Below are positions 4,042 to 32,641 of a stretch of 64,000 nt of DNA, in pieces (the stretch's first letter is position 1; each line of letters starts with the position of its first letter). A program made the position numbers and the translations under genes. Source of the stretch: Alphaproteobacteria bacterium (GTDB lineage: Bacteria; Pseudomonadota; Alphaproteobacteria; Bin95). A model generated the notes under the pieces. It searched no databases. It was not told the DNA's origin and saw nothing but the letters and a program-made list of their open reading frames with translations. The stretch is taken from positions 4,139,121 through 4,203,120 of the forward strand of contig OZ253490.1 of assembly GCA_965261985.1 (NCBI GenBank). Reading direction: 5' to 3'.

Positions 4042-4189
4042 ACCGGGAAGCGGTAATCGCAGCGCTCAATTTTCAAGGCCCTATCCTACTCTCCTAAGAC
4101 CGCTCTTCCATCGGCTCCATTGTATAATCTGGCGACATAATTGGGGACAGCAGCATTATTGTCCTCAATAACCCAATATTGTTCGTTGC

Positions 4190-4483: not shown

Positions 4484-4630
4484 GATTCCTCTCTCCGACC
4501 GCCTTCACCATACTCTCCGTATGCCATTCGACTATTCCGTCCGCACCGGTCTCTGTTATCCACCCTCCCGGCAAGGCCTAATGCCCACTTGCTCAGGCGC
4601 GCGACAGCGCCAGCGGGGCGCCCTGCCGCC

Positions 4631-5458: not shown

Positions 5459-5459
5459 T

Positions 5460-6143: not shown

Positions 6144-6240
6144 CCGGCCGGTCTCCGGGAGCGGAAATCGGCGCGGACGCTATCACAAGTTCGTGAGGGA
6201 GGCGATTCCCGGAGAGTCCGCGGAACGGTATCGACCGGCG

Positions 6241-6921
6241 TCAGCCGCGCGCCCCGAAAACCGCGCTGCCGACCCGCACATGGGTCGCGCCGAAACGGAT
6301 CGCCGTCTCGAAATCCGCGCTCATGCCCATCGACAGCCCCGAGAGCCCGTTGCGCCGGGCCGCCTCGCGCAGGAAGGCGAAATGCGGGCCGGGCGGGTCT
6401 TCGGCGGGCGGAATGCACATCAACCCGACGACATCCAGGCCGTATCCCGTGCGGCATTCGGCGAGAAAGCCGTCGAGCGCAGCCGGCGCGACGCCGCCCT
6501 TTTGCGGCTCATCGCCGGTATTGACCTGCACGAAGCAGGGAAGCGTCCTGCCCGTCCGCTCGAACTCGCGCGCCAGCGCCGCGGCGAGCCGGGGCCGGTC
6601 CACCGTCTCGATCACGTCGAACAGCCGCACCGCAGCCCGCACCTTGTTCGTCTGCAATCCGCCGATCAGGTGCAGGGCGATGTCGGGGAACCGCTCTCGG
6701 AACGCCGGCCAGCGCCCCTCGGCTTCCTGCACCCGGTTCTCGCCGAAGAGCCGGTGCCCCGCTTCCAGCGCCCCCGCGACTCGCGCTTCAGGCTGCAGCT
6801 TCGACACCGCGACCAGCCGGACAGAGGAGGCATCGCGCCCTACAGCCTCCGCCGCCGCTCCGATGCGGCCCGTCACAGCCGCCAGGCGCCCGGCAGCGTC
6901 GGGGTTTTCCATACATCCCAT
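6241..6921 (-). CDS. yggS: YggS-family PLP-binding protein (PLP homeostasis)
   Basis: VRLVAVSKLQP...FGENRVQE...HLIGGLQTNKV...SMGMSADFETAIRFGATHVRVGSAVFG is typical of YggS/ProsC. Confidence 0.85.
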   Translation of the reverse strand: MGCMENPDAAGRLAAVTGRIGAAAEAVGRDASSVRLVAVSKLQPEARVAGALEAGHRLFGENRVQEAEGRWPAFRERFPDIALHLIGGLQTNKVRAAVRLFDVIETVDRPRLAAALAREFERTGRTLPCFVQVNTGDEPQKGGVAPAALDGFLAECRTGYGLDVVGLMCIPPAEDPPGPHFAFLREAARRNGLSGLSMGMSADFETAIRFGATHVRVGSAVFGARG

Positions 6922-16226: not shown

Positions 16227-16302
<76 letters not shown>

Positions 16303-16333
16303 TCCTTCTCTTCATTCTTTCGGAACGGGCCGG

Positions 16334-16645
16334 TCAGGCGTCGTTCAGCACGTGAATCGTCCGCTTGGCGATCAGTTCCCTCGTCTTCGCCGCATAGGCC
16401 GCCATATGGGCCGAGGCGCCATGCGCGCGGAGCGCGTCCAGGCTCGCCCATTTCTCGATGACAACAAAGGTGTCCTCGCCGTATTTCGTCTGGATCGCGC
16501 CCGCTTCGGCGTCCACGGCCGCGCCGTATTCGATGCACCCGTCCTCCGCATGCACCGCCGGCACATTCGCATTGAAGGCTTCCAGTATCTCGGCCCGGCG
16601 GCCGGGCTTGGCCTGGATGACGGCGATGACATGGACCCTGGACAT
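16334..16645 (-). CDS. ABM-domain (antibiotic biosynthesis monooxygenase / YgiN-like) protein
   Basis: 103 aa, with VIAVIQAKPG...C..Y.........FVVIEKWASLDALRAHGASAHM, the typical ferredoxin-like ABM pattern. Confidence 0.7.
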   Translation of the reverse strand: MSRVHVIAVIQAKPGRRAEILEAFNANVPAVHAEDGCIEYGAAVDAEAGAIQTKYGEDTFVVIEKWASLDALRAHGASAHMAAYAAKTRELIAKRTIHVLNDA

Positions 16646-16724
16646 AAACTCTCTCCTCTCCCCGCCGCCCCTGCGGCAACGGTTCTCCCGGCGTTATTGA
16701 CCGCTTTCGACCTCCCGGGTCAAG

Positions 16725-18905
16725 ATGGCGCCATTCCCCGAACGCCCGGAGGCCCGGCCGATGCCCGAAGCGCGCGCTCTCTGCTCTTCCTGCGATATCT
16801 ATTGCCAGGTTCTGGTCGAGACGACAGACGGGCAGGTTGTCCGGGTGAAGGCGACCGATCCGAGGCCCGGCCGCGCCAATATCTGCATGAAGGGCGTGCA
16901 CGCGCCTGCCGGCTTCGCCCACCCCGAGCGCGTGTTGCACCCCCTGCGCCGAAAGGGGCCGCGCGGGGGCGGGGAATGGGAACGGGTCGGGTGGGACGAC
17001 GCGCTCGACGACATCGCCGAACGCCTTCAACGGGTTATCGACCGTTACGGACCGGAGGGGTTCGCGGTCTCGACCAGTTCCTGGAACACGCAGAGCGACA
17101 GCGGCATGTGCCGGCGCTTCATGAACCTGGTCGGCTCGCCGAACTGGATTTCGGGCGTGGCGCTCTGCGCCGGCAATACCGCCGCCGTCAACCGCATGGT
17201 CTATGGCTGGTTCCCCTTCCCCGACTTCACCAAGACCGAATGCATCGTTCTCTTCGGGCACAACCCGAAACCGCACTCCTGGACGCCGGAATACAATGCC
17301 ATCCGCCGCGCGCAGGAGCGCGGCGCGAAGCTCATCGTGCTCGACCCGCGCCGGTCGGAAAACGCCGAGCTTGCGGATATCTGGCTGCCGCTCAAGGTCG
17401 GCACCGATGCGGCCATGTGTCTGGGATGGCTCAAGGTCATTCTGGACGAAGGCCTTTGGGACCGGGATTTCGTGAAGCGCTGGACCGCGGGATTCGATGA
17501 GCTCCGGAAGCGCGTCGACGAGTTTCCGCTGGAACGGGTTGCGGAGATCACGGGCGTCGCGCCGGACCGGATCGCGGAAGCCGCACGGCTTTATGCACAG
17601 TCGACGCCGGCGGTCATTCCTTGGACGCCGATCACCGACCTGCAGCGCAACTCGACCTCGGCCATCCGGCTTCAGGCCACCCTGCGCGCCATCTGCGGCA
17701 ATCTCGATGTTCCCGGCGGCGAGCTGCTGCACGGCTTCCATCCGCACATCGTGCCGGAAACCGACCTCGAACTGCACGATGCGCTGCCGGAAGCGCAAAA
17801 GGCCAAGCAGTTGGGCTCCGATACCCATCCGGTGTTCACCTATCGCGGCGCCGCTCCCCTGGAAGAGCCGACCCTGCGGGTCTGGGGCCGGCGCTACGCC
17901 AATCTGGTCTCCGGCTGCTACATGGCGACGCCGTCTGCCGCGTTTCGCGCCATGGCCGACGGCGAACCCTATCCGGTCAAGGCGTTCTTCACCCTCGGCA
18001 ACAACACCCTGCTCAGCTTCGCCAACATGCAACTCATCCATCGGGCGCTGCTGAACCAGGACCTCATAGTCGCATTCGAGCACATGAAGACGCCGACGGC
18101 GGCCCTTGCCGACTACATCCTTCCCGGCGATGCCTGGACGGAGCGCAAGGCGCTGGGAGACGGTTTCGGCTGGACCGCGATCTACCGTACTTCGCAGCAG
18201 GCCGTAGCCCCTCCCGGCGAAGCGCGCAGCGTTTACGATTTCTGGAGCGGTCTGGCGTCCCGCATGGGCCTCGGTTCCCATTTCCCGTGGGAGAACGGCG
18301 ATGCGTTGCTCGACCACCGCGTAGCGGGGCTTGGCATGAAATTCGACGCCTTCGCCGAGCGCCATGCCATACACACGGACGGTCTCGAATTCCGGAAATA
18401 CGAAGCGAAGGGGTTTGCGACGCCATCGGGCAAGGTCGAACTCTCGTCCTCGGTGCTGGGCGCGCTCGGCTTCGATCCCCTGCCCTACTGGCGCGAAGAG
18501 CCGCCGGCGCCGGCCGACATGCCGCTGAGGCTGTTCACCGGCCTGCGCGAGGACGCCTATTTCCAGACCGGCCACCGCCATATCGCAGCCCTTCGCGCCC
18601 GTGCGCCCGAGCCGCTGCTCTACCTGCATCCCGCTGACGCGGCCGAGGCCGGAATCGCAGACGGGGAACCTGCGATCGCCGAGACGGCGCAGGGCCAGGT
18701 CCGGATGAAAGCCGCTATCCGCGACGACATGCAAAAGGGCTTGGTGCGAGTGCCCCATGGCTGGTGGCTGCCGGAAGTCGGGCTGGAGAGCGCCTGGGAA
18801 ATGGCCGATGCGCAGCTCTGCCCCGACGACGAGGATTTCCTCGACCGCGAACAGGGCATCCCCCATTTCAAGGGCATCCCCTGCCGCGTCGCCCCGGCGG
18901 CATAG
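16725..18905 (+). CDS. Molybdopterin (bis-MGD) oxidoreductase, DMSO-reductase/formate-dehydrogenase superfamily
   Basis: An N-terminal Cys cluster (CSSCDIYCQVLV...ICMKG) is followed by molybdopterin-binding and C-terminal dinucleotide-binding regions. The start may be the second Met at 16761. Confidence 0.8.
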   Translation: MAPFPERPEARPMPEARALCSSCDIYCQVLVETTDGQVVRVKATDPRPGRANICMKGVHAPAGFAHPERVLHPLRRKGPRGGGEWERVGWDDALDDIAERLQRVIDRYGPEGFAVSTSSWNTQSDSGMCRRFMNLVGSPNWISGVALCAGNTAAVNRMVYGWFPFPDFTKTECIVLFGHNPKPHSWTPEYNAIRRAQERGAKLIVLDPRRSENAELADIWLPLKVGTDAAMCLGWLKVILDEGLWDRDFVKRWTAGFDELRKRVDEFPLERVAEITGVAPDRIAEAARLYAQSTPAVIPWTPITDLQRNSTSAIRLQATLRAICGNLDVPGGELLHGFHPHIVPETDLELHDALPEAQKAKQLGSDTHPVFTYRGAAPLEEPTLRVWGRRYANLVSGCYMATPSAAFRAMADGEPYPVKAFFTLGNNTLLSFANMQLIHRALLNQDLIVAFEHMKTPTAALADYILPGDAWTERKALGDGFGWTAIYRTSQQAVAPPGEARSVYDFWSGLASRMGLGSHFPWENGDALLDHRVAGLGMKFDAFAERHAIHTDGLEFRKYEAKGFATPSGKVELSSSVLGALGFDPLPYWREEPPAPADMPLRLFTGLREDAYFQTGHRHIAALRARAPEPLLYLHPADAAEAGIADGEPAIAETAQGQVRMKAAIRDDMQKGLVRVPHGWWLPEVGLESAWEMADAQLCPDDEDFLDREQGIPHFKGIPCRVAPAA

Positions 18906-19094
18906 CGCACGGTTCGATCCGGATGAATTGACGGTCGTTCGGGCGACGGCCGCCCGTGGCCGGCATCCGGTGGAGGCGGGGCGGCGCGGCTGCGGGGACA
19001 CCCCCTCGGAAATGTCATGAGATGTCATGTTTTGTCATGGACGGCGACTCCGTCGTTCCGCCGGCGTTCGTTCCGGGCATCCGGCGCGGCGTCG

Positions 19095-19228
19095 GAACGA
19101 CCCTGTTTCGCGCGTATCGCCGCCCCTCCCCCTGGCGTCATCCCGGCCGGAGCGAAGCGGAGAGCCGGGATCTCCAGCGGCTGCCTCCGCCCTTGCGTCA
19201 CGAGGCCCCGGATCAAGGCCGGGGCGAC
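19095..19228 (+). repeat. GC-rich hairpin-forming dispersed repeat, copy B
   Basis: It aligns to the reverse complement of 102-240. It also shares the block GACCCTGTTTCGCGCGTATC with the repeat at 27814-27835 and, in reverse, near 54940. Confidence 0.6.
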
Positions 19229-19277
19229 GCTAATTTGGCGTTGCCGGCTCCTCCCTCGCGAAGTGTCATGAAATGTC

Positions 19278-20901
19278 GTAACTGCCCAGGATGTCAGATT
19301 TGGTTATGGGGTTGACGGTGGGAACGAAAAATGAGTCAACCTTTGGATGAGTCGTTCCGAGCCGTTTGACCCATTGAGGGTGGCCGGGTCCGAGACTTCC
19401 GGACAGAAGATCGCGCGTCTTGAGTTGGAGACCGCTTGGCTTCGGGAGGAGAACGCCTCGCTTCGGGAGGAGACCGCGCGGTTTCGGGAGCGGATAGGTG
19501 AGCTGGAGCGCCGTCTCGGTCTGAACAGCGGCAATAGCGGCAAGCCTCCTTCGAGCGACGGTTTGAAGAAGCCGTCGTCTGAGCGCCGCACACAGAGCCT
19601 TCGTGGCAAGACGGATCGCAAGCCGGGCGGTCAGCCGGGCCACAAGGGCCGGACGCTGTGCCGGACGGCGAGCCCGGACCGTGTGAAGGACCATGTTCCA
19701 GCGGCGTGCGGGGGCTGCGGGGCGTCTCTTTTGGGAGCGTCTTTTGTGGGCGCGCCGGTAGCGCGTCAGGTATTCGACCTTCCTGAGCCGCGTCCTTTGG
19801 AAGTGACGGAGCATCGCGGCCATGCGTGTCGCTGCGGGCGTTGCGGGGCTGTGACGCGGGCGGCGTTTCCCGATGGCGTATCGGGTCCGGTTCAGTATGG
19901 CCCTCGTCTTTCGGGCGTTGCGGTATGGCTCCGTCATGCGCAGTTCCTTCCGGAGCGCCGGCTGTCGGAGGTTCTGGGGGTTTTGTTCGGAGCGCGCGTG
20001 TCGCCTGCGACGCTGGCGTCGATGAGCCGTCGTGCGGCGGAGCGTTTTCAGGCTGCGGGCGGGCATATAGAGGAGCTTGCGGCGGTCGGGGCGCGTGTGA
20101 AGCATCTGGACGAGACCGGACTTCGCATTGGCGCACGCACGCGGTGGCTCCATGTGATCTGCACATCCCCGGATCGGGTCCGGGGCAGGCTCTTGCTGGC
20201 GGCGTATCGGGTGAGCGAGCGGCGCGGCGCCGTGCCTGCGGGGGTGTCCGGGGTCGCAGTGCACGACCACTGGCAATGCTACTGGCCGATGGCGGGTGTG
20301 GAGCATGCGCTTTGCAACGCGCATCACCTTCGGGAGTTGCAGGCGCTTGTGGAGTTCGACAAGGAGGACTGGGCCCGGCGCATGCAGCGTCATCTGCTTC
20401 GGGCCCGGCGCGTGGCGCGGCTGGCGCGGGAGCGGGACATGGCCGTTCCGGGGCGTTTGTTGGCGCGTCTGGTGCGCGGCTACGACCGGCTGCTTGTCGA
20501 GGCGATGGCGTTCCATGAGAACCAGCCGCCGCTCTCCTCGCCCGGCCGGCGCGGGGCCCCGAGGCGGCGCAAGGGTCACAACCTCGCTTTGCGCCTGCAT
20601 GAGCGCCGGGACGAGACCCTGCGCTTCCTGACCGACCCACAGGTCCCCTTCACCAATAATGAGGCCGAGCGCGACCTGCGCATGATGAAACTGCGCCAGA
20701 AAATCTCCGGAGGCTTCCGCTCCCGAAGCGGCGCAGACGACTTCGCCATACTGCGCACAATCATCGCCACCGCTCAAAAGCAGGGCCGGGACGTCCTCAA
20801 CACCCTGATGGGGTCGCCTCGCAGCTTCATCGACGAAATCCGATACGCCTGAAACTACCCCAGGCGCCAACGCCCCTACGACCAACATCCTGGGCAGTTA
20901 C
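19278..20901 (+). mobile_element. IS66-family insertion sequence (single transposase ORF), copy 1, 1624 bp
   Basis: The terminal inverted repeats are GTAACTGCCCAGGATGT (19278-) and ACATCCTGGGCAGTTAC (-20901). It is flanked by the 8-bp direct repeat GAAATGTC (19270-19277 and 20902-20909). Confidence 0.9.
19347..20852 (+). CDS. IS66-family transposase (TnpC-type)
   Basis: The N-terminal leucine-zipper-like region reads LELETAWLREENASLREE...ELERRLGLNSGNSGKPPSSDGLKKP. Cys pairs (PAACGGCG...CRCGRCG) and a DDE core with HLDETG, HDHW and CNAHHLREL follow. Confidence 0.9.
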   Translation: MSRSEPFDPLRVAGSETSGQKIARLELETAWLREENASLREETARFRERIGELERRLGLNSGNSGKPPSSDGLKKPSSERRTQSLRGKTDRKPGGQPGHKGRTLCRTASPDRVKDHVPAACGGCGASLLGASFVGAPVARQVFDLPEPRPLEVTEHRGHACRCGRCGAVTRAAFPDGVSGPVQYGPRLSGVAVWLRHAQFLPERRLSEVLGVLFGARVSPATLASMSRRAAERFQAAGGHIEELAAVGARVKHLDETGLRIGARTRWLHVICTSPDRVRGRLLLAAYRVSERRGAVPAGVSGVAVHDHWQCYWPMAGVEHALCNAHHLRELQALVEFDKEDWARRMQRHLLRARRVARLARERDMAVPGRLLARLVRGYDRLLVEAMAFHENQPPLSSPGRRGAPRRRKGHNLALRLHERRDETLRFLTDPQVPFTNNEAERDLRMMKLRQKISGGFRSRSGADDFAILRTIIATAQKQGRDVLNTLMGSPRSFIDEIRYA

Positions 20902-21347
20902 GAAATGTCATGTTTTGTCATGATCCGCATGCGCATGGCGCATAGACGCTTGTCCTTTCAGGCATGAAGGGCATGGGCTGGGCAGGGGCTGCAGGTATTC
21001 CGTCCGTGTAGGGGGACAAAAGTAATGCGGAAGCTGGACTATGCCGGATATGAACGGACATGGCCGGACGGAGTGAGACGAGGGAAGGGTTTGCGAGGGA
21101 TGAGCGGCGTAGAGTGACGCGGCGAAAAAGTCTTGCGGAATGAGCCTCTGAAGCGGCCCTAAAGCGGCGATTTACGAAGCCTCAAATTGTGGGAAAATGC
21201 GCGCCTCGTGAAGCTGTGCAACTTCGGCGACCGGGATCGCCATTGCGACGGCGGTCGGGGCGGCGTATAGAGAGGGCGGCGCCGGAAGCATCTGCCCTAC
21301 TCTCATGCCTTCGGGCGAGCGCGGGGGTGGCGACCCGCCCGGCGCCG

Positions 21348-22239
21348 TCACTTCTCCACCCTCGTCCAACGCGACCGCGCGGCAGTCAAGTCGCGCACCT
21401 TCGCCTTGTGCAAGGTGTCGAGATAGATATCCGATCCGTCCTTCGTCGCCTTGATGGCCGCGCGCCATAGCTGGCCATCGACAGTTGTGAAGCCCAAGAA
21501 CCTCCGGTCGCCGGACTTGAAGAGATCCCCCTCGTCGAGGATGCGCTGCACCAGCGCATAATCCTCGGCCTGCACGTCCCGATGTCCGACATCGAGATCG
21601 GTCCGCTGCCGGCGGCCGGCCTGTTTGGCGGCTGTCTCTCCCGACAGCCTGACGACGTGCGACCGCGCGCCGATCGCGCCGGCGACGCTGTCGTCGAGCA
21701 TGCCGACCGCGAAGTCGCCATGCTCCGTTCTCCGCCCGGCCGTTTCCAGGAACCGTCGAAACAACCGCGTCCGCCAGGGCGCCCCCACGGCGGCCCTCCC
21801 AAGATCGGGCGTCGCCGCGTCGATCTTCCGGATGAGCCGGTCGGCAGAGTCCTTGCCGACATCGATCAGGCCGACATTGTGCTGGAAGCCGGGGTCGATG
21901 CCGACGGGCACCTGGACGGTGCGTCCGTTCCGCCTGTCGAGCCAGGGCCGGGTCTCGTTCCAGCCCTCCGGCGGTTCCTCCGACAGCTCGAAGCCGAACT
22001 CCTCCAACTCCTCGTGGGACAGCTGGATGACAGTGCAGCGGCAGCGCCAGCCGCAGGGCGGATAGTGGGTGCGCCAGAAGGGATGGTCCCAGGGCAGGAC
22101 GGTGCCGTGCCAGCGCATGTGCTCCGGCCGGGTCCGCGCGTCCAGGACAGCGACATAGCGGAGAAGCGGCCGCGCCTCGGCCAGCCGCTCGATGCGCTCC
22201 CAGCGACCGCGCGCATAGGCCGTGGATGTCAATCGGCTT
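21348..22239 (-). pseudogene. Phage MuF/SPP1-gp7-like head morphogenesis protein, 5'-truncated by IS21-family element, with about 200-aa C-terminal extension
   Basis: YARGRWERIERLAEARPLLRYVAVLDARTRPEHMRWHGTVLPWDHPFWRTHYPPCGWRCRCTV matches my memory of the Phage_Mu_F domain. The first 54 codons of ORF 21348-22400 are read-through of the IS end. Confidence 0.65.
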
Positions 22240-22428
22240 TGAAGTTTGACCCCCGATCGGCGTGCAATATTGACCCCCCTGAGTGGCACGGCGGAGGTTG
22301 TCCCGGTAGTCAACAGGGGGGACCCGCGCGGCTTCGTGTAGCGCCCTGCGCTACGCGGAGCGAAGCCGCGTGGGGGGTGCCTGTTGGCCCACCGGGGCAA
22401 CCGGGCCGCGGGGACGGTCGGCGCCGGG

Positions 22429-23157
22429 TCAGGAGCGGTTCTTGAAGCGCCAGCTCTCGTTTCCGGTCTCGATGATCTCGCAATGATGGGTCAGGCGGTC
22501 GAGCAGGGCTGTGGTCATCTTGGGGTCGCCGAAGACGGACGGCCATTCGCCGAAGGCGAGGTTGGTGGTGATGACGATCGAGGTGCGCTCGTAGAGCCGG
22601 CTCATGAGGTGGAAGAGCAGCTGCCCGCCGGCCTGGGCGAAGGGCAGGTAGCCGAGTTCGTCGAGGATGACGAAGTCGCGCCGGGTGAGCTGGTCCGCGG
22701 TGCGGCCCTGGCGTCCGGAGCGGATCTCGGCCTCGAGGAGATTGACCAGGTCGACGACGTTGTAGAAGCGGCCGCGCGCGCCCTTGCGGATGCAGGACCG
22801 CGCGATGGCGACGGCGAGATGGGTCTTGCCGGTGCCGGTGCCGCCGACCAGCACGATGTTGCGCTTGGCTTCCAGGAAGCCGCCCATTGCGAGGTCGCGG
22901 ATCAGGGGCTCGTTGACCGGCGAGGCGGCGAAGTCGAACTCGGCCAGCTCCTTGGCCGCCGGCAGCCTGGCGGACGCCATCTGGTACTTGATCGAGCGTG
23001 CCGTCTTGTCGGCGATCTCGGCCCTCAGCAGAGCGCCGAAGATCTGTTGCACCGGATGACGGCGCTTGAGCCCGTCGGCGAGGATGTCGTCATAGGCGGC
23101 GCGCATCCCCGCGAGCTTCAGCGTTGTCATCATCGCCAGCACCTCATGACGCTCCAT
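22429..23157 (-). CDS. istB: IS21-family helper ATPase IstB
   Basis: The Walker A is [18 protein letters not shown], followed by [13 protein letters not shown]. This is typical IstB, and it overlaps the istA stop. Confidence 0.9.
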
Positions 23158-24658
23158 GGCCGGCCCCCCTCAGGCGGTCGTAGCGCCGACAGTCGGCCAC
23201 CGGCTGGTGGCGAAGCCGCAGGCCCTCGGGCGTCGGGATGGTCGCCGGCGGCGCCGGCTGGCACCGCCGGGCCAGGATGTTGAGCACGACGTCGGCGCTG
23301 CAGGCGCCGCTGTCGAGCGCCTCGGCACAGGCCGCCTCGACCGCCTCCAGCCCGTCCTCCAGCACCGCCGCGAGAACCTTGACGAACTGCCGGTCGCCGT
23401 CGTCGCGGGCGGAAAGCCGGGTCCGCAGGCGCCCGAGCGCGTTAGGCAACTGCCAGCCCTTGAAGGGCGCGCCATTGCGCAGCGCGCCGGGCTTCTTCGT
23501 CAGAATCGGCACGTAGTGCCACGGATCGTAGACGATCCGGCCGCGCCCGAAGCTGCGGGGATGCTCGGCGACGATCTCGCCGTCCTGGCGGATGACGATC
23601 CGATCGGCATAGGCCCGCACGTCCACCGGTCGCCCGACCGCGCGGGCCGCCACGCTGTACTGGTTGTTGTCGAAGCGCACCAGACAAGTCTTGGAGACCG
23701 CTACCTCAGTGGCGTGGAAGCCGTCGAAGGGGCCGCGATACGCTGTCAGGAAGGGCCGCTCCTCCTCGAACACCTGCCACACCGTCTTGCCCGGGATCGT
23801 CGGATGCGGACGCTTCCTGGCGTCCTCGATGCACCGATCCATGAGCCACTCGTTGATCTCGGCGTAGGAGCGGCCCCGCGGGCTGGGCACGAACAGGCGG
23901 CCGCGAACGTCACCCACCTGTCTCTCGACCTGCCCCTTCTCCCAGCCAGCCCCGGGCGTGCACGCCACAGGCTCCACCAGATGGTGGGTACACATCTCCT
24001 GGAAGCGGCGGTTGTAGTCCCGCTTCTTGCCCACGAACACCGTGCTCACCGCCGTCTTCATGTTGTCGTAGATGCCGCGCCGGCAGACCCCGCCGAAGAA
24101 GCGGAACGCGCGCTCGTGCGCCTCGAACACCATCTCCTGGCTCTCGCGCGGGAAGATCTGGACCAGCTGCATGCGGCTGTGACACAGCCGCATGTGCGCC
24201 GCCTTCACCCTGGTCGTCGTGCCCGACAACACCGCGTATTCGTGGCTCCAGTCGAACTGGTAGGCCTCGCCCGGATCGAAGATCAGCGGCACATAGGCCT
24301 CGGACGACGACAACAGCCGGTGCCGGCGCCGCCAGACCCTGGCATAGCGGCGCACCGCGTCGTAGCCGCCCTCATAGCCCAGAGACGCAAGGTCTTCATG
24401 AATCCGCAGCAGAGACAGCCGATCCCGGCGCGCCTTCTTCTCGTTGGCCTTCAGCTGGCGCTCGAGCTCATCCACCCACGGTCCAAGCTTCGGCATCGGC
24501 TGGATCTTGCGCTCGTAGCTGTACGAGGTCTCATCGCCCCGCACCACCTTGCGCACCGTGTTCTTCGAAACCCTCAAATCCCGGGCGATCGTCTTGATCG
24601 GAACGCCCCTCACCAGATGATCCCGACGGATCCGTGCGATCGTTTCCACTACCAGCAT
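23144..24658 (-). CDS. istA: IS21-family transposase IstA
   Basis: From the ATG at 24658 (RBS GGTGAGGGGGAG): [38 protein letters not shown] (HTH), followed by a DDE integrase core. Confidence 0.9.
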
Positions 24659-24781
24659 CTCCCCCTCACCTCGTCCGTCCAATGACAAGGTGCGTTCATG
24701 GGAACAAACCATGGGGGGGTCAATTTTGGACGCCGATTACCCCCAATCGGGGGTCAATATTCCACGCCGATCAACAATACA

Positions 24782-26704
24782 GGCGATCTGAGGACGCGCA
24801 CCACGCCAGTGACGTTCCTCGGAGAGGCGCCGGGCGAAGCCGATATCGACGAGAGGCTCGACGTCTCCAACACCTCCATTTCCCCGGAATATATCGGCGT
24901 CGAACTCGCCGGGGGCGGGCGCGACTGGTCGCTGACCGGAGGCGCGCGATCGACAACAGCGCGCGACCGGGTCGAGCTCTCCGTCCTCGGCTCCTACTGG
25001 CTGGCGCCACTGTCCGACCTCACCGGACGCCGCCTGCCCACCACGCTCTGCTCTGTGCGCCTCAAGGGCCAGGTGGGCGCCCCGCCGCGCCGCGTGCTCA
25101 AGGTCGACGCAGACCAGGCGGTGTCGGTGCCGACCGCGAACGGCGTCTGGTCCCAGGCTCGCCAGCCCAGCCGCAACCCGGCCGCGATCCTGCGCGCCTT
25201 CGCGCGGGGCTGGTACGACACGGCCGAGCGCAGCGGCGGCGGGCCGGCGCCGACCGGCCGGCTGCTCGCCGGCACGGGCCGCGATCCGGAGACGATCGAC
25301 GACGCCGTCCTGGCCCGGTTCTACTGGCGCTGCGAGAACCACGACCCGCCGCTCCGCTGCGATCTGGCGCTGCAGGGCGACGAGCGGCCGGCGGAAGCGA
25401 TCGAGCGCCTGATCGCCGCGACGGGCCGGGCCGAGATCTCCTGGGCGACGGGCAAGCTCGGTGTCGTGTGGACCGAGCCCGACGACGCGCCGCAGGGCCT
25501 GATCTCGCCGGCGAAAGTCCTGCCCGGCACGCTCTCGCTCTCCTGGCGCGACGGCCCGCTCCCGGACGACATCGTGGTCTCCTATCTCGACCGCACGGTC
25601 TGGGAGGGCCGCGAGGTCCGCGTCCTCGTGCCTGGCGCCGACGGAGGGGGCCGCGAGCGCCAGGTGCGGCTTGAAGGCGTGACGGATGCCGACGCCGCCA
25701 CCTTCCATGCCGCCTCGATCGCCGCCGACGAAGCCTTCCACCGCCGCGCGGTCTCCTGGAGGGCGGGTCGCGAAGGCGCGCTCATGACACGCGGCTCGCT
25801 CTGGCTCATGGCCGCCGACCTGCTCTCCGGAGGCGTGACGGGCCGGCTGCGCGAGTTCGGCGAGGGCCGCGTCCGCCTCGACCGCCCGGTCCGGCTCACC
25901 TCCCAGGCATGGCTCGCGATCGACGCGCCGGGCGCAGACCTCCACCGGACGCCCGTGCTCCGCGCCGACCCCGATCCCGACGGCGGCGATACCGACGCTC
26001 TCATCCTGGTCGAGCCGTTTCCGGGGATCGGTGCATCGGACACCTCGAAGCCGCGCGATGTCGTCTGGCGCCTCTACGATCTCGGCCTGCCACCGAAGCC
26101 GGTCCGCATCCTGTCCAACCGGCCGGTGTCGAAGACGGAGTTCGATATCGTTGCCCGTGACGAGGTGCGGGACTACTGGACCTTCCTCGACGACTATCGC
26201 GCCGCCGCCGCCACGCCCGGCCTGGTGACGGACCTGCCGGACCGGGTGAGGCTGACTTTGGACGGCGCCTGGAACTGGCCGCAGGCATGGACCGACGCCG
26301 GCATCGAGGATGCCTCTCTGATCGTGTTCGGCGCCGCTCGGGGAGCGCGAGGGGCAATCCAGCCGGGCGGGACCTACATAACCACCTATGACGAACAAGG
26401 GCCGGTATATGCATACGACCCGCCGGCCTGGGGATCGGTGGGCGCCGCTGGCGAAGACACCACGGTCACCTTCGGCTCCACGATGGAGATTGTGCCCGGC
26501 CAGGCGCGCGCGTCGACATCCACGTTCTCCTCCCCCGGTTTGCCGCGCCAGGACTGGAAGATCACGAGCGCCGACGCGCCCGTCACGTTCGATTTCGGCG
26601 CGGGTGGGCGCGGCGGCGCCGGCGGGCGCAACGGGACCGGGCAGGCGGCACGCGGCGCCGATGGCGCCGGCGCCTATGCCGAGATCGTGCCGTTGCCGCC
26701 ATGA
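24782..26704 (+). pseudogene. Phage tail / host-specificity protein (lambda J / GTA gp15-like), 5'-truncated at the IS21 end
   Basis: The reading frame runs out of the IS end. The central region (SRNPAAILRAFARGWYD...LLAGTGRDPETIDDAVLARFYW) resembles the Phage-tail_3 region of J-like proteins. The C-terminus is glycine-rich (FGAGGRGGAGGRNGTGQAARGADGAGAY). Confidence 0.55.
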
Positions 26705-27639
26705 TGCACACCCTCGTCATGCTCTCGGGCGGCCCGGACAGCGTCGCGGCGGCCTGGAACGCGGCTCAGGCCGGGCCGGTGCTGCTTGTGCACATGCGGC
26801 TGTCCCTGCATCCCGGCGCGAGGCGCGCCGAAGGCCGCGCGGCTCGCGCGACGGCAGCGTGGATCTCCGAGCACACCGATCATCCGGTGCGCTATGCCGA
26901 GCTGGCCTATGCCGTGCCGCGCGAGGTGCGCCTGGGCATCGGCGACATGGACCATTGCGCCTGGCCGCGTGCGGCGTTCCTGGCTGCCTGCCCGGAGATC
27001 GGCGCGCTCGCCCGCTGCGCCGTCGCCGAGGACGTCGCCTCGGGCTGGCTGAAACGCGCCGCCCATTACCGCGAGGCGGTCGAGATCGCGCTCGACGGTA
27101 TCCGGGACCCCGACTGGCGTTGGACCGACCCGCTCGGCTGGCCTCCGCCGCCCAAGGCCGGGGTGCTGGACGTCATGCCGCCCGAGCTGCGCGAGATGGC
27201 CGTTTCCTGCCGCCAGTCCGCGCCGTCAGGCGCGCCGTGCGGCGAGTGCGACAAATGCCTCGGGGACCGGCCCGGAAGCGCCCCTGCGGGCGTTTTCCCG
27301 GCCCCGCCGCCGCGCCCGCGCGACTGGGGTTGGGACCGGCTCCTCCTCCTCGATCCCGACAGGCTCTGGCGGCGCGACATCCGCGAGCTCAAGCCCCGTA
27401 CGCTCGCCCTCCTGCCGCACCCGGATCGCAAGGCCCTCGCCACGGCGTGCGCCGGCGCCGAGCGCATCGCCCAGCGTCACGGCATCGAGATCGCCGTCGA
27501 GCCCCTCTGGCTGCCCGGCCTCCGGCGCGCCGTCCCCGCGCCCGCCTGGCCCGCCGCGCGCGAGGCCGCCGCCCGCATCCTGGCCGGCCTCTGGCTACGG
27601 ACCAACGAACGTCATAAATCGGAGGAAAACCAGCGATAA
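26701..27639 (+). CDS. QueC-like PP-loop ATP pyrophosphatase domain protein with unknown C-terminal extension
   Basis: The ATG overlaps the tail-gene stop (ATGA). The N-terminus has the PP-loop LVMLSGGPDSVAAAW. Near residue 170, SCRQSAPSGAPCGECDKCL resembles the QueC zinc-binding Cys cluster. The last approximately 120 aa were not recognised. Confidence 0.55.
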   Translation: MMHTLVMLSGGPDSVAAAWNAAQAGPVLLVHMRLSLHPGARRAEGRAARATAAWISEHTDHPVRYAELAYAVPREVRLGIGDMDHCAWPRAAFLAACPEIGALARCAVAEDVASGWLKRAAHYREAVEIALDGIRDPDWRWTDPLGWPPPPKAGVLDVMPPELREMAVSCRQSAPSGAPCGECDKCLGDRPGSAPAGVFPAPPPRPRDWGWDRLLLLDPDRLWRRDIRELKPRTLALLPHPDRKALATACAGAERIAQRHGIEIAVEPLWLPGLRRAVPAPAWPAAREAAARILAGLWLRTNERHKSEENQR

Positions 27640-27767
27640 ATCGGCCATGGATTTCCCGTCGAAAATCCCTCGAAAAATCCCGCCGAAATTAAGTTCTGCA
27701 GAATTTTTGTCCGCCTACAGTCCGGGTTCTCCGGCTTCGCGTCTTCGGCATGGGTCTTTCCTCTCGA

Positions 27768-27975
27768 TCCCGTTTCGTTCCGCTCATCCCGCCGCCGGTT
27801 CATCCCCTGCGGCGGGACCCTGTTTCGCGCGTATCACGCGCGGGCGGGCGGGCCCGCGCGTGCGCCTTTGGCGCCGGCGCGAAACAGGAGGCGAGGCGGC
27901 TCCCGGGATGCCGCTTCCTCCTGCTTCATCCTATCACAAATTCTCCAGAGTCAAATCTTATCTAGGAATTATTTC
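27768..27975 (-). repeat. Modular dispersed repeat, copy C (inverted relative to copy D at 54705-54995)
   Basis: It aligns by eye to the reverse complement of 54705-54995, from CGTTTCGTTCCG through GGGACCCTGTTTCGCGCGTATC to GGAATTATTTC. On its minus strand it carries TTGACT-N15-TAGGAT with an upstream TG (27927-27953). Confidence 0.65.
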
Positions 27976-28569
27976 TACAAATTGCGAAACGTGAGACCGC
28001 CTTCGACCCTGCGCCCCGCGGACGGCCGCGAGCCTCGCCCTCCGCCGACGGCGTCGGGAACCGGAAACGGCCGCCGTCTTCACCGGAGCGAGGGTTGCAG
28101 TTCGCCCCGAAATGCCGTTCAATCCGACAGGATACGGCTCTGGCGCGACTCGATCCGGTCGAACCGGGCGCCATTCCGCGAAAAGCCATCGGACGGACAA
28201 ACTGAGGAGCGCGATTCGTGAGCGTATTGGCGCATGTCATCCTTGGAGGGCCGCAGCAGAACGAGCCCGCTGCAACGCAGGCTCTGGCCTACATATTGAA
28301 ATCAAGTCCGGATATCGATATGACGGGATTTTCAATCGATCATAGAGCCTAAATCACCGGCATAAGCGACGACGACATTTGGGAATCTCGAACTTCTTCT
28401 GGAGGCTAGTATTTGTACAAGATTCCTCGGCAGAAAATCTCCAGCGAATCTGCCGATGATGTTGACTGGCATTTGGCGCTTCGGTCTCCGTCGTGGACAA
28501 CCCAACCCGCGCTTGCGTTCCCCTGACCTGTCATCATGCTTTCAATTCGGAGCGACCAATCTCGTGTTG

Positions 28570-30417
28570 TCAACCACACGCGTCCGCATCGGTCACCGCC
28601 ATGAACAGTGGAGTCCGAAGTTCATTTCTCTCGATCATCGCGCGCATCTCGTCTAGATCCTCCTCGAAGGCACTCATGTTGACTTGAAGATAGCGCCAGC
28701 AACTGAACTCCGGTCGTCCGCGAAGGGCTGTCGCTGATCGATGCGCCCGGCTCAAGCGGTCCAAGGCCTTATCGATTTTCCCAACTGCCCAATAGGCTAT
28801 CGCCATGCACTGAAGATAGTTGGCAGTCTCTTCGCTTCCCTCCCCCGACTCATCGGTCTCCACTGCTCGCTCAAATGCCTCTCTTTCGATGGCCCCACCC
28901 CTCCCCCAAACTGCCATTCCATAGTTGAATGCTTCCACGATCCCCATCTCCGCGATACTGGAGCCCTCCTCTCGAAAGCATTTCTCGGCCTCCTCGCATC
29001 TACCAAGGCCCATGTATGACAACCCAAGACCGTGTCTGGCCCTATCACGCATGTCAGGCTGAATATCGGTTGACGCAACAATCTCTTCCCATAACGCTAT
29101 TGCAATCAACAGATCTTCTTGAAAACGATTGAATGTGCCGGCCAACCAGTATTTTCCATGAAGGTCCAGCGAGATGACCGCGCGTGACTTTACAAACCGC
29201 TGTATTTCATATTTTTCCAATCGCACCAAACGCCGGACCGCTTCCCTGACCATGGGGGGGGCAATATATTCTGCCGCCAACACGCACCACGCATCATCCG
29301 CCGCTCCGTCCAATTCACCATTGTCCGTGCGGAACCGCGATCGTTTCAGAAACGCTTCCGGCCGATCATATCCACAGTAAATTGCTTGATTGATTAGTTG
29401 CGCCGCTGATTCAGGCTGGCGATCAGATTCCTTAAGCTCAGCAAGACGAAACAGGACCTCTCCATCATCTTGATGGGCTTGCTCAATCTTCGTAAGTCTC
29501 TCATCCCTTGTGAGTATGGAGTCATCTTCCAACCATTGCCCTCGCTCCCCCGCGCGCTCGATATATTCGAGTGCACCATCCCTATCATTCCAGTTTCTAG
29601 TTGATATCTCTTGTGCAATTTGGCTGTATTCATGTGCTAGGCGACTTCTGGGGCGGTCCTTCGAAAATACTACTTGGTTCAAAAGGGAGAGAGAGTCGTA
29701 GCGATGCACAACCATGGGGTCCCGCGGAAAACCGAGTTGTTGTTGAAATGCTAATATCTTGTCCTTCAGAATTTGATCTTCGTCGTCTAAGTCCGGTACA
29801 TTTGACATTACGAAGTGCAGGGCTATATTCTTATTTCTTGGCTCATCGGCCTCAGCACGAATATCACGGACCACTTGTATCAAACCGCGAAGATTCTGTT
29901 CGTTGGGAAAAAATAGAATGACTACTGAATCGGGAAGTTGTCGTGTACAAATTCCACTGGAATCCGTATGACCAGTGCGGGAGTCTATCAAGACATAGTC
30001 CGGTTTAATAACCTGTTTCCATTGGTGTTTTACGTCTTCAAATAACAAATATCCGTCACGCTTCTCGTATAAGTCAATCCAGTCGACTTGCCCCAATGTT
30101 GCAGCGTAAGTGTCTGTTAGACCGGAACGCATGAGCCATATTTTTCCGTCTCCAGTACCGATTTCGGGGCAGTCTCCTATATAACTAGAAACATCAGGCG
30201 CTTTGCCGGTTTTCACATATTCAGCCACGAAATCAATTATTCCCGGAATTTCTTCTTTGGGTCGCAGGATGTCGAAGGTATCTAGTCCAGGTGCTTCAAT
30301 GTCGAAATCAACAACAAGTACGTTGCGTCCGCGCAGGGCGAGGGTGACGGCCGTATTTACGAGAGCCATTGTGCGGCCTACACCACCCTTGAAGGAGTAG
30401 AACGTCGTAATGTACAT
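28570..30417 (-). CDS. KGGVGR-motif ParA/MinD-like (SIMIBI) ATPase fused to C-terminal TPR-like repeats
   Basis: From the ATG at 30417, 5 nt after the antitoxin stop: MYITTFYSFKGGVGRTMALVNTAVTLALRGRNVLVVDFDIEAPGL (deviant Walker A). YVLIDSRTGHTDSSG is Walker-B-like. The C-terminal half has helical repeats (GLGLSYMGLGRCEEAEKCF; ANYLQCMAIAYWAVGKIDKALDRL). GC is low. Confidence 0.8.
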   Translation of the reverse strand: MYITTFYSFKGGVGRTMALVNTAVTLALRGRNVLVVDFDIEAPGLDTFDILRPKEEIPGIIDFVAEYVKTGKAPDVSSYIGDCPEIGTGDGKIWLMRSGLTDTYAATLGQVDWIDLYEKRDGYLLFEDVKHQWKQVIKPDYVLIDSRTGHTDSSGICTRQLPDSVVILFFPNEQNLRGLIQVVRDIRAEADEPRNKNIALHFVMSNVPDLDDEDQILKDKILAFQQQLGFPRDPMVVHRYDSLSLLNQVVFSKDRPRSRLAHEYSQIAQEISTRNWNDRDGALEYIERAGERGQWLEDDSILTRDERLTKIEQAHQDDGEVLFRLAELKESDRQPESAAQLINQAIYCGYDRPEAFLKRSRFRTDNGELDGAADDAWCVLAAEYIAPPMVREAVRRLVRLEKYEIQRFVKSRAVISLDLHGKYWLAGTFNRFQEDLLIAIALWEEIVASTDIQPDMRDRARHGLGLSYMGLGRCEEAEKCFREEGSSIAEMGIVEAFNYGMAVWGRGGAIEREAFERAVETDESGEGSEETANYLQCMAIAYWAVGKIDKALDRLSRAHRSATALRGRPEFSCWRYLQVNMSAFEEDLDEMRAMIERNELRTPLFMAVTDADACG

Positions 30418-30422
30418 ATTCG

Positions 30423-31007
30423 TCACGCGACCCGACGTAAGTGGAAAGCCTGCTGTTCCATCCGCAGGGTAGTTGTCACTTTCACAGCTCGGAATTTGTT
30501 GTCCGCCGTAACTGCCGCACTTGTTTCGGAGAGTTTGGGCACTACGAATTCCTCGAGCCTCGCCATGATCTCTGGACACGCAAGCAGGCGAAGATATCGG
30601 TCGTTGGCATATGACTGGATAGATAGACCATTTTCCCACCGGTTTAGCGATGCTTCGCCAAGCCCTGTTACATGGGCAAAGGTGGCCCGCGTCATCCCAT
30701 AGTGCTCTCTGATATGCCGAATCTTGTCAGGCGGCAGAACGCCCAGATGATCGCAGACCGCTGTGTGCTTGAGTCGTTCCGCCGTATCATCCAGATATTC
30801 GAATTCGCACATGCCGCACTGATGCACTGGCACTCGCACCTGCAACTCGACCGAGGCGTCCCCGGAACCATAATCGAACGCGTGAAGATTCCATGTGGTC
30901 GTTATACTTTCTTGACCGCACATCGGACAAGAAGGCACCGACTGCACAACCCGCATTTGTGTCCGCGGATGAGCTGGCTGGTGAGTGTTCGAGCCTCTCG
31001 GATCCAT
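30423..31007 (-). CDS. MqsA-type antitoxin: N-terminal Zn-ribbon + XRE-type HTH, with 40-aa C-terminal tail
   Basis: The Cys pairs CPMCG (C27/C30) and CGMCEFEY (C64/C67) are followed by the HTH IRHIREHYGMTRATFAHVTGLGEASLNRWENG. The architecture matches E. coli MqsA as I recall it. The start is uncertain, with an alternative Met18 at 30956. Confidence 0.75.
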   Translation of the reverse strand: MDPRGSNTHQPAHPRTQMRVVQSVPSCPMCGQESITTTWNLHAFDYGSGDASVELQVRVPVHQCGMCEFEYLDDTAERLKHTAVCDHLGVLPPDKIRHIREHYGMTRATFAHVTGLGEASLNRWENGLSIQSYANDRYLRLLACPEIMARLEEFVVPKLSETSAAVTADNKFRAVKVTTTLRMEQQAFHLRRVA

Positions 31008-31019
31008 CTCCTGGCTTTC

Positions 31020-31379
31020 TCAATCTCTCCGTTCGGAATAGTGGAAGCTGCGTCCGATGATCTTTCCCGATCTTAGCTGCAGCTTGACGTAGAGCTGTGC
31101 TCGGCCTGGCTCGAGGTCGATCTTCATCACGTATCCGGTGGCCCCTTTCGGCTTGTGCAGCTCCACTATCTCAATCGGGTGCCCGTCTTCGAGCCGTGTC
31201 GCGATGAGTTCCCATGCCGCAGCATCTGTGAAATGGGTATCGAGCACCCCTTCCGGGTTCCGTACCTGTCCTGGACGCCAGTCCGTCGGACGCTCAGTGC
31301 TGAACGCTGTCACGCGGGCATGGCTCCTTCGTGCGAGGAGAGCCAATTGACGTCTAGTCGATTCGCTCGGCACCGTCAT
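31020..31379 (-). CDS. Toxin candidate (position and C-terminal pattern reminiscent of MqsR/RelE-fold RNases)
   Basis: This is the 119-aa first gene of the operon, and the toxin-first order matches mqsRA. The C-terminal GYVMKIDLEPGRAQLYVKLQLRSGKIIGRSFHYSE resembles the MqsR C-terminal strands (..QVYLKFTVIHDVLIVSFKEK, from memory). There is no secure motif match. Confidence 0.4.
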   Translation of the reverse strand: MTVPSESTRRQLALLARRSHARVTAFSTERPTDWRPGQVRNPEGVLDTHFTDAAAWELIATRLEDGHPIEIVELHKPKGATGYVMKIDLEPGRAQLYVKLQLRSGKIIGRSFHYSERRD

Positions 31380-31403
31380 TGGCCCGAACCCTCGCCTCTT
31401 TCA

Positions 31404-31432
31404 ATCATATGAGGCGTCAAATCGGATTTCAA
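31404..31432 (-). promoter_or_regulatory. Candidate sigma70-type promoter of the three-gene operon
   Basis: On the minus strand, TTGAAA (31432-31427), then 17 nt, then TATGAT (31409-31404), about 25 nt upstream of the ATG at 31379. The inverted repeat AAATC-C-GATTT lies in the spacer. CCCGAACC occurs at 31383-31390 and 31441-31448. Confidence 0.45.
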
Positions 31433-31518
31433 GCCATGATCCCGAACCGAATCTGGCAAATACCGCTTCACATGGCATCATTTGATTTGATCGGCCTCTT
31501 GTCGATAGACGGCCTGCG

Positions 31519-32641
31519 TCAGCCCTTGTCGGCTGCCCGGTCCGCGCCGACCTGGGCGGCGAGCGCCGCGCTCAGGAAGTCGTCGATATTCCCGTCCAGA
31601 ACGCCTTGGGCGTTTCCCTTCTCCACGCCGGTGCGCAGGTCCTTCACCATCTGGTATGGCTGCAGGACATAGGAACGGATCTGGTTGCCCCAGCCGATAT
31701 CCGCTTTCGCAGCCTGCTCCGCCTGCGCTTCGGCCTCGCGCCGCTGGAGTTCGTGCTCGTAGAGCCGCGCCTTCAGCATGGCCATGGCCGTCGCCCGGTT
31801 GCGGTGCTGCGAGCGGTCGTTCTGGCACTGGACAACGATATTGGTCGGGAGATGCGTGATCCTGACGGCGCTCTCGGTCTTGTTGACATGCTGCCCGCCG
31901 GCGCCTGACGCCCGATAGACATCGACCCTGAGCTCGCTCTCGTCGATCTCGATCTCGATGCGGTCGTCCACCACCGGATAGACCCAGGCGGAGGCAAAGC
32001 TGGTGTGGCGGCGCGACTGGCTGTCGAAGGGCGAGATGCGGACCAGGCGATGGACGCCGCTCTCCGTCTTCAGCCAGCCATAGGCGTTGTCGCCCTCGAT
32101 GCGCACGGACGCGGACTTGATGCCCGCTTCCTCGCCGGGGCTTTCTTCAATCCATTCCAGCTTGTAACCGCCGGCATCGGCCCAGCGCACATACATGCGC
32201 AACAGCATCTGCGCCCAGTCCTGGGCCTCCGTGCCGCCCGCGCCGGCATTGACTTCCAGGTAGCAATCGTTGCCGTCGGCCTCGCCGGAAAGCAGGCTCT
32301 CCAGCCGGCGGCGGCTCGCCAGTTCCCGAACCGACTCAAGTTCGGCTTCGGCCTCGTCCAGCGCCCCCTGGTCCCCTTCCGCCTCGCCGAGTTCGTAGAG
32401 CGTGAGCGCATCGTCCAGCGCGGTTTCGAGCGCGCGGTAGCCTTCCAGCCCGGCGGCCAGGCGTGTCCGATCGCGCATGACCTCCTGGGCGCGCGCCGGA
32501 TCGTTCCAGAGTTCGGGCGTTTCCGCCTCGGCGTTCAGGACCTCCAGCCGCGCCAGCGACGCATCCCAGTCAAAGATGCCTCCGGATCAGGACAAGGCTG
32601 TCGCGGATGTCATCCACCAGGGCCTGCGCTTCTGCACGCAT
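31519..32641 (-). CDS. prfB: Peptide chain release factor 2, requires programmed +1 frameshift
   Basis: The ATG at 32641 opens 23 codons ([23 protein letters not shown]) that end in TGA within CTT TGA C. The +1 frame continues [35 protein letters not shown] into ORF 31519-32478. SPF (RISPFDSQ) and GGQ ([10 protein letters not shown]) motifs are present. Confidence 0.9.
32569..32575 (-). other. prfB +1 programmed frameshift site CTTTGAC with upstream internal SD GGAGG
   Basis: The minus strand reads CGGAGGCATCTTTGACTGG. This is the canonical RF2 autoregulatory site. Confidence 0.85.

Follow-up and report, generated by a model that had tools for sequence, protein, structure and literature searches.

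A candidate three-gene toxin–antitoxin-like cassette joining an MqsA-type protein to a KGGVGR-variant ATPase–TPR protein

INTRODUCTION

In the MqsR/MqsA toxin–antitoxin (TA) module of Escherichia coli (ygiUT), a small gene comes first and is followed closely by the gene for a protein with a zinc ribbon and an XRE-type helix–turn–helix (HTH). Like most type II antitoxins, MqsA represses its own operon through an HTH dimer; in E. coli, it binds the palindrome ACCT-N-AGGT. Here, we describe a cassette of three genes that opens in the same manner and then departs from it. The cassette lies in a 64,000-nucleotide (nt) stretch of the genome of an Alphaproteobacteria bacterium (assembly GCA_965261985.1, contig OZ253490.1, positions 4,139,121 to 4,203,120), referred to throughout as ‘the window’, and its genes are termed g1, g2 and g3 in the order in which they would be transcribed. 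They encode a small protein of a family without annotation (g1), an MqsA-type protein (g2) and a ParA-like ATPase of the KGGVGR-variant family fused to a long tetratricopeptide-repeat (TPR) region (g3). We regard the cassette, with moderate confidence, as a horizontally mobile, three-part TA-like module that has not been described before and that would act in defence or addiction.

The likeness to MqsR/MqsA covers the gene order (small gene first, then zinc ribbon plus XRE-HTH), the tight spacing, and a palindrome that overlaps the promoter, which suggests autoregulation. The differences are equally plain. g1 falls outside the MqsR family by Pfam, by profile–profile comparison and by fold; the operator-like sequence is TCAnATGA, a palindrome other than that of E. 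coli MqsA; and the cassette has both a tail of ~44 residues on g2 and a third gene, for an ATPase–TPR protein. Because g1 fails the tests for MqsR, the cassette is not an mqsRA module.

A third gene is also found in toxin–antitoxin–chaperone (TAC) systems. In the TAC design, a C-terminal extension makes the antitoxin dependent on a SecB-like protein (PMC9519451). MqsRAC, built in this way, protects E. coli from phage T2 (Vassallo et al. 2022, PMC9519451), which shows that an MqsA-type module can enlist a third protein to defend against phages. Our cassette resembles these systems in having three genes, in pairing an MqsA-type antitoxin with a C-terminal extension that tracks the third gene, and in that the third protein is proposed to be both the controller of the antitoxin and the point at which invaders are sensed. 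It differs in the family of the toxin and in the nature of the third gene, a KGGVGR ATPase–TPR fusion, and it is known from sequence alone. No SecB match is present in g3 in Pfam or NCBIfam, and since the third gene is not SecB-like, the cassette is not a TAC system.

Two further groups of proteins bear on g3. ATPase–TPR sensors of the STAND/Avs type combine, as g3 does, a nucleotide switch with a TPR array, but the NTPase of g3 belongs to the SIMIBI class, and no effector domain is fused to it. Kaur et al. 2020 (PMC7159879) pointed out ParA/MinD-like domains, predicted inactive, within proteins of conflict systems; unlike these, g3 is coupled to a TA-like pair rather than to vWA–MoxR or similar partners. 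Our literature search found no paper on the KGGVGR family, on the candidate system PDC-M28 (discussed later), or on MqsA in combination with ParA or TPR. An earlier reading of the window, made by a model from the sequence only (‘the sequence-only reading’), knew of no described system with this trio. That judgement stands: PADLOC matched only the ATPase domain of g3, and the literature search brought up no paper on the three together.

ORGANIZATION AND CONSERVATION OF THE CASSETTE

The three genes form one operon. The open reading frames (ORFs) proposed in the sequence-only reading were found again head to tail on the minus strand, from 31379 to 28570, with spacers of 12 nt (g1–g2) and 5 nt (g2–g3) (Table 1). 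The ORF of g3 as listed extends farther upstream, from a GTG codon; the MYITTFYSFKGGVGRT start adopted here is the one used by most homologues, which begin at MY[IV]TTFYSFKGGVGRT in an alignment of 20.

Table 1. Coordinates of the cassette, its putative regulatory elements and its neighbours in the window
Feature	Position	Strand	Description
g1	31020–31379	minus	119 amino acids (aa); family without annotation, toxin-first position; candidate toxin
g2	30423–31007	minus	194 aa; MqsA-family; candidate antitoxin, autorepressor and g3-docking partner
g3	28570–30417	minus	615 aa from MYITTFYSFKGGVGRT start; KGGVGR-variant ATPase plus TPR superhelix; ParA/MinD-like (SIMIBI) ATPase at residues ~1–290, TPR superhelix at ~300–600
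Promoter-like element	31404–31432	minus	−35 TTGAAA (31432–31427), 17-nt spacer, −10 TATGAT (31409–31404)
Proximal operator-like palindrome	31405–31412		TCATATGA; overlaps −10 hexamer; predicted site of g2 HTH dimer
Distal operator-like site	31477–31486	minus	ATCAAATGAT; core TCAAATGA at 31478–31485; ~100 nt upstream of g1
prfB (release factor 2)	31519–32640	minus	right neighbour, followed by a PBP1A-like gene
tRNA-Phe	16227–16302		left of triad
IS66-family transposase	19347–20852	plus	left of triad
Phage-tail_3 domain protein	24698–26704	plus	left of triad

Relatives were sought with a g3 alignment in one genome per GTDB species. The scan gave 139, the best 80 of which were taken; all 80 are metagenome-assembled genomes (MAGs), and three further contigs bring the set to 83 loci. 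The order g1–g2–g3 and the tight spacing are the same in every one. Approached from the other end, through g1 in metagenome contigs, g2 follows in every one of the 59 loci long enough to include it, and g3 in 38 of 43. The adjacency of the ATPase and MqsA-like genes, which might have been a matter of chance, is on these counts not so. In two metagenome-contig lineages, g1–g2 occurs without g3 and is followed by unrelated genes, and the pair can therefore stand alone. Examples are the loci L131 (positions 2219–3873 after g1–g2) and L112 (downstream of g2). By eye, the 246-aa and 305-aa ORFs that follow the pair in L131 look like a candidate AbiEi/AbiEii-type pair. In another locus (L079), an insertion of ~1.4 kb separates g2 from g3.

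The base composition of the triad sets it apart from its surroundings. The drop in guanine-plus-cytosine (GC) content that the sequence-only reading had estimated by eye is real: 400-nt windows fall to 0.44–0.56 from 28.2 to 31.2 kb, against 0.64–0.78 in most of the flanking sequence. For the triad as a whole GC is 0.523 versus 0.686 for the flanks, the biggest gap among 78 loci compared, and the triad is lower than its flanks in 74 of the 78. The flanks themselves are not shared. All-against-all clustering finds no flanking family in more than 8 of 82 loci; related loci have no fourth conserved gene; and the flanks of the window match no related locus beyond ~110–200 nt of promoter region. 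Non-conserved flanks and low triad GC together lead us to view the triad as a mobile 3-kb cassette without a recombinase of its own.

PROMOTER AND OPERATOR-LIKE PALINDROMES

The promoter-like element TTGAAA-N17-TATGAT, already picked out in the sequence-only reading, is present ahead of g1. Taken alone the match is weak, as this AT-richer region has 9 promoter-like matches against 2.8 expected. What makes it convincing is that related loci conserve both boxes, −35 and −10, together with the palindrome that overlaps the −10. In aligned upstream regions, the −35 (CTTGAAAT) and −10 (CATATGAT) hexamers keep a constant distance to g1 across loci of different groups, and a second copy of the palindrome lies ~70 nt farther upstream than the −10 copy. 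With this second copy, the conserved regulatory region extends to ~31486, past position 31432 at which the element had at first been taken to end.

The palindrome, TCAnATGA (core TCANATGA), occurs upstream of g1 in 130 of 152 related loci, 68 of which have at least two copies; elsewhere in the same loci, its background frequency is 0.005 per 200 nt. The entire window contains the proximal and distal copies and only one other. By analogy with other antitoxins, this pattern is as expected for repression of the operon by an HTH dimer of g2, for which the palindromes would be the predicted binding sites. The −10 palindrome and the existence of g1–g2 forms point in the same direction, to an autoregulated bicistronic core with an operator at its promoter and g2 as the putative ligand.

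THE MqsA-TYPE PROTEIN, g2

The MqsA architecture assigned to g2, a four-cysteine zinc ribbon followed by an XRE HTH, is borne out. Each of C27, C30, C64 and C67 is shared by at least 95% of the 84 homologues aligned, and HTH_3 matches residues 96–130 inside an XRE HTH that spans ~92–150. Scores against the MqsA profiles lie below their cut-offs, narrowly for TIGR03830 (59.7 bits against 61.8, residues 27–148) and also for PF15731 (24.4 against 30); RefSeq names the counterparts from Rhizobium and Massilia as MqsA-family antitoxins. The first ~20 codons are not conserved in the 84 homologues, and translation may in fact begin at M18.

None of the 83 loci has a broken g2. In most loci, the g2 stop codon precedes the start of g3 by 2–9 nt, a gap that fits co-translation, or translational coupling, of partner proteins. 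Its C-terminal tail (~151–194) is conserved and displays a recurring F-R...F-x-L-R pattern. Where g3 is present, the tail has a median length of 44 aa (n = 120) and reaches 40 aa or more in 119 of the 120 loci; where g3 is absent, it measures 18–26 aa (n = 4 loci, from only two independent lineages). This suggests, as in the antitoxins of TAC systems, that the tail may be the site at which g3 makes contact or docks.

THE PROTEIN IN THE TOXIN POSITION, g1

g1 belongs to a sizeable family. A HMMER scan of 1.84 billion representatives returned 480 clusters at 50% identity, nearly all 110–130 aa long, the members of which NCBI labels as hypothetical; g1 has no match in Pfam, NCBIfam, PADLOC or PHROGs. 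Gene callers at times give a 97-aa version, and residues 1–22 are nevertheless conserved. The AlphaFold2 model (predicted local distance difference test (pLDDT) 82; predicted template-modelling score 0.77) comprises a helix (6–17), a long, highly conserved, Pro/Trp/Arg-rich loop (18–51), a second helix (52–64) and four beta strands.

Several properties of g1 would suit a toxin gene. It is the most conserved of the three, with a median identity to the window of 67.5% (50.6% for g2 and 52.9% for g3). It is also the one that decays: by frameshift, stop codon, insertion or truncation it is broken in 7 of the 83 loci and g2 in none (Fisher p = 0.014), a count made in MAG assemblies, where assembly errors are possible, and at loci selected for an intact g3. 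Decay of g1 with retention of g2 is the order expected if a toxin is dispensable and an antitoxin is not. From the position of g1, its top conservation, the g1–g2 variants and the g1-only decay, we infer that it is the toxin. One locus (L017) carries an insertion of ~3.4 kb inside g1.

The sequence-only reading saw a loose resemblance to MqsR in the C-terminus, and this did not hold up. Membership of the MqsR family (PF15723) was rejected: Pfam, NCBIfam, PADLOC and PHROGs searches came back empty, and those of the PDB were empty or gave E>0.2. Alignment of g1 by hhalign to 35 MqsR sequences has a probability of 5.6% over 18 columns, and of 7% when forced over 77; against E. coli MqsR, it is below 7%. 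Nor did a BECR (RelE-like) fold come to light. Among the best 50 of 586 Foldseek matches to the model, there is no RelE/MqsR-type structure, although loop 18–51 may mask a match to the core; the neighbours among these 50 are NTF2-like or designed sheets with template-modelling scores (TM-scores) of ~0.3. The 18 columns form a hairpin in which YIKLQLGxGxVIGRSFH is aligned with VYLKLTVIDDVLI-VSFK, so that Y97, K99, S111, F112 and H113 of g1, all invariant or nearly so, stand opposite Y81, K83, S94, F95 and K96 of MqsR. Y81 and K96 are proposed active-site residues of MqsR. We treat this correspondence as a lead, not as evidence of membership.

THE ATPase–TPR PROTEIN, g3

g3 is what it had been read to be, a KGGVGR-type SIMIBI ATPase fused to TPRs. 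The motifs FKGGVGRT, DFDIEAPGL and DSRTG are present in the translation, and residues 2–186 match NF047398 (KGGVGR-motif variant AAA ATPase) with 156.4 bits, above the cut-off of 90, which makes g3 a member of that family. Other profile matches are to CbiA/ParA and TPR_12. In the AlphaFold model, pLDDT exceeds 90 for residues 300–600 and is low, 40–70, for the ATPase domain. In Foldseek, the N-terminal half pairs with Soj and NifH, whereas TPR superhelices (consensus TPR, OGT, SPINDLY and kinesin light chain) answer to the C-terminal one. Sequence comparison puts FleN, ParA, Soj and MinD closest among proteins of solved structure (E ~1e-3, with matches confined to the first 40–60 residues). 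The P-loop lysine is replaced by arginine in 136 of 136 homologues, as it is in PDC-M28B; KGG[VTS]GR has S or T after it in all but one of the 136. g3 keeps the signature lysine, the DxD motif and the Walker B aspartate.

In PADLOC, g3 matches component B of the phage-defence candidate PDC-M28, through its ATPase domain only (3e-30; g3 4–216 against profile 131–348 of 438). Like the cassette, PDC-M28 has three genes in an operon centred on a ParA-like ATPase of the KGGVGR-variant type, and it too is seen on mobile DNA. In contrast to g3, PDC-M28B has no TPR region, and PDC-M28 is itself only a candidate. Membership of the cassette in PDC-M28 was rejected: g1 and g2 match neither PDC-M28A nor PDC-M28C, which leaves the ATPase domain as the only part in common. 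As a positive control, A, B and C of pSurvcare220 all match PDC-M28, at 1e-126 to 1e-173. On this Enterobacter bugandensis plasmid (L167), the full A/B/C operon occupies 3069–6399 beside a tyrosine recombinase/integrase. Components A and C of PDC-M28 are without Pfam domains.

A different arrangement is present on the Sinorhizobium chiapasense plasmid NZ_CP133151 (L166, 3989–6193), where a 734-aa protein joins a KGGVGR ATPase to a TIR_2 domain. A 106-aa ORF precedes it with a gap of 1 nt, and its neighbours are another TIR protein and a patatin-like protein. This looks like another defence-type locus based on the same ATPase. Together, the PDC-M28 and TIR/patatin neighbourhoods support placing KGGVGR ATPases in conflict-type contexts.

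Such neighbourhoods also invite the converse assignment of roles, in which g3 would be the effector and, once activated, would harm the cell or the invader (e.g. as a coat on the nucleoid or a sink for an essential ligand of the TPRs), with g1 as sensor or co-antitoxin. The KGGVGR ATPase domain is indeed joined elsewhere to effector-type domains such as TIR, and the ATPase is the central protein of the candidate PDC-M28. TPRs, however, are binding modules rather than effectors, g1–g2 survives without g3, and the gene that is most conserved and that decays is g1, not g3. We consider it very unlikely that g3 is the effector, and continue with g1 in that role.

DISTRIBUTION, MOBILITY AND OTHER POSSIBLE ROLES

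By the titles of the records, the cassette occurs in at least seven phylum- or class-level groups: Alphaproteobacteria, Gammaproteobacteria, Candidatus Binatia, Acidobacteriota (Vicinamibacterales and Terriglobia), Latescibacterota, Spirochaetia and Candidatus Entotheonella. All three genes were found by tblastn on plasmids of Rhizobium gallicum R602sp and Massilia forsythiae, and annotation alone places the trio on plasmids of R. phaseoli and Polymorphobacter megasporae. On the plasmids of these cultured hosts, the RefSeq label of g3 is ParA/AAA ATPase and that of g2, as mentioned, MqsA-family antitoxin. The family is present, too, on metagenome contigs.

A ParA-like protein on plasmids brings DNA partition to mind. 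g1–g2 might be an ordinary TA pair and g3 an accessory to it, such as a ParA-like partition or positioning ATPase, for which g2, bound to DNA, would serve as adaptor and the upstream palindromes would act like a centromere. g1–g2 pairs do occur without g3; g3 is ParA/Soj-like in sequence and fold; repeated palindromes ahead of an autoregulated operon are also like type Ib partition loci; and stimulation of a ParA ATPase by the tail of its partner is a known theme (ParA/ParB, ParF/ParG and MinD/MinE). Most copies of the cassette, however, are single and lie on chromosomes; on the 23-kb Massilia plasmid, a canonical ParA and a partitioning determinant are encoded elsewhere. Partition ParAs show neither the ATPase-last order nor a TPR fusion nor an arginine P-loop, and g3 accompanies g1–g2 in nearly all loci. 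A ParABS partition system is disfavoured by these features (arginine P-loop, ATPase as last gene, mostly chromosomal copies, separate ParA locus on the Massilia plasmid), and the wider proposal, of g3 as an accessory to an ordinary TA pair, we think distinctly unlikely.

Many of the carriers are probably sponge symbionts. Several titles point that way (Spongia_Bin9, Ca. Poriferihabitaceae and Ca. Poriferihabitans), and the bin codes CAR, COS and RHO fit the sponges from which Robbins et al. 2021 took their samples (PMC8163846); for the remaining MAG records, we infer a sponge origin. A signalling or regulatory module unrelated to toxins, possibly for a host-associated lifestyle, might account for this, with g2 as transcription factor, g3 as an ATP-dependent TPR scaffold (a ‘eukaryote-like repeat’) and g1 as adaptor or co-regulator. 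g1 bears no toxin signature, sponge-symbiont MAGs are numerous among the carriers, TPR proteins are reported to be enriched in sponge symbionts (PMC8163846), and the conserved operator makes g2 a regulator at the least. But the cassette is not sponge-specific, since it is present on metagenome contigs and on Rhizobium, Massilia and Polymorphobacter plasmids, and nothing in g3 points to export. The g1-only decay, the patchy spread across groups, the variable flanks and the low GC all fit a selfish or defence cassette better, and we judge a purely regulatory role unlikely.

PROPOSED MECHANISM

We return, then, to a TA-like module, and outline how it could work. The steps that follow go beyond domain identity, synteny and operator conservation, and are conditional throughout. 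g2 would dimerize on the TCAnATGA palindromes over the promoter and repress the operon, while its zinc-ribbon domain would keep g1 inactive. g1 would be a growth-arresting effector of a new family, possibly a very divergent MqsR/RelE-like RNase. g3 would dock on the ~44-residue tail of g2, either by holding it in the TPR groove or by accepting it as an ATPase-stimulating peptide, and through nucleotide-dependent dimerization would set the activity or the lifetime of g2. As a switch or guard, g3 would thus play a part comparable to that of the SecB-like chaperone in TAC systems such as MqsRAC. A trigger that engaged the TPRs or the ATPase cycle, such as a stress signal or a protein of phage or plasmid origin, would free g1, and the outcome would be abortive infection or post-segregational killing. 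The sequence-only reading had sketched a similar idea, that the ATPase–TPR protein senses an invader or stress and controls the antitoxin. Control of the antitoxin gains indirect support, as the g2 tail tracks g3.

Several observations weigh against a TA-like defence or addiction module. None of 88 diverse g1 relatives matched a Pfam family; sequence and profile searches of the PDB with g1 were empty or gave E>0.2; Foldseek comparison of the g1 model with PDB and BFVD found nothing below E = 0.02, with a best TM-score of ~0.3; and the hhalign scores with MqsR are low. The decay of g1 was counted under the limits given above, and the correlation of tail with g3 depends on two lineages on the g3-less side. 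No relative of the triad was found on IMG/VR viral contigs, and in several genomes the cassette sits alone among housekeeping genes, outside defence islands. With arginine in its P-loop, finally, g3 may carry out no ATP hydrolysis at all.

A fuller claim, that the cassette typifies a new class of three-part abortive-infection or addiction system in which an arginine P-loop ATPase with a TPR sensor guards an MqsA-type antitoxin through its tail, g1 is the effector of a new family, and spread across the seven or more groups takes place without a recombinase, we advance only tentatively. What we rate as new here is the combination of a TA-like core with a new class of sensor or regulator and with a toxin-position protein of a new family.

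THE NEIGHBOURHOOD IN THE WINDOW

To the right of the cassette, the conserved promoter region begins ~30 nt past the stop codon of prfB. The programmed +1 frameshift site of this gene, CTT TGA C (~32576–32570) with GGAGG ahead of it, is canonical and an ordinary, known feature. Among seven contexts inspected gene by gene, five (L001, L003, L170, L171 and the window) have one within a few kilobases: serS, alaS, ileS, valS or, in the window, prfB. Chance could explain this, or a preference for such insertion sites; the all-against-all clustering of flanks brought out no neighbour that recurs.

On the left, 16227–27639 looks like the remnant of a mobile element or prophage; besides the features in Table 1, it includes several large ORFs without a Pfam match. 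One of 312 aa (26701–27639, plus strand), which starts MMHTLVMLSGGPDSV, has a PP-loop-like SGGxDS motif and no Pfam match at E<=0.001. Between these phage-like genes and the stop codon of g3 lie ~930 bp (27640–28569) of intermediate GC, 0.53–0.65, in which we found neither a convincing ORF nor an Rfam match, and to which nothing similar exists in the related loci, of which more than 160 were compared. Between 20 and 40 kb of the window, Rfam matched no RNA element.

IMPLICATIONS

If the model is true, the cassette would represent a third way of wiring a TA module to a sensor, besides proteases and SecB-like chaperones, the link in this case being a nucleotide switch of the SIMIBI class joined to a TPR array. 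It would provide the first proposed mechanistic context for the KGGVGR ATPase family, and would add to the list of candidate toxins a family of small proteins with at least 480 clusters at 50% identity. As plasmids of cultured Rhizobium and Massilia carry the cassette, the idea is directly testable. The cassette is common (139 or more genomes at species level, and protein clusters in the thousands), and its exchange among unrelated members of the sponge microbiome may matter for the dynamics of phages and plasmids in dense communities.

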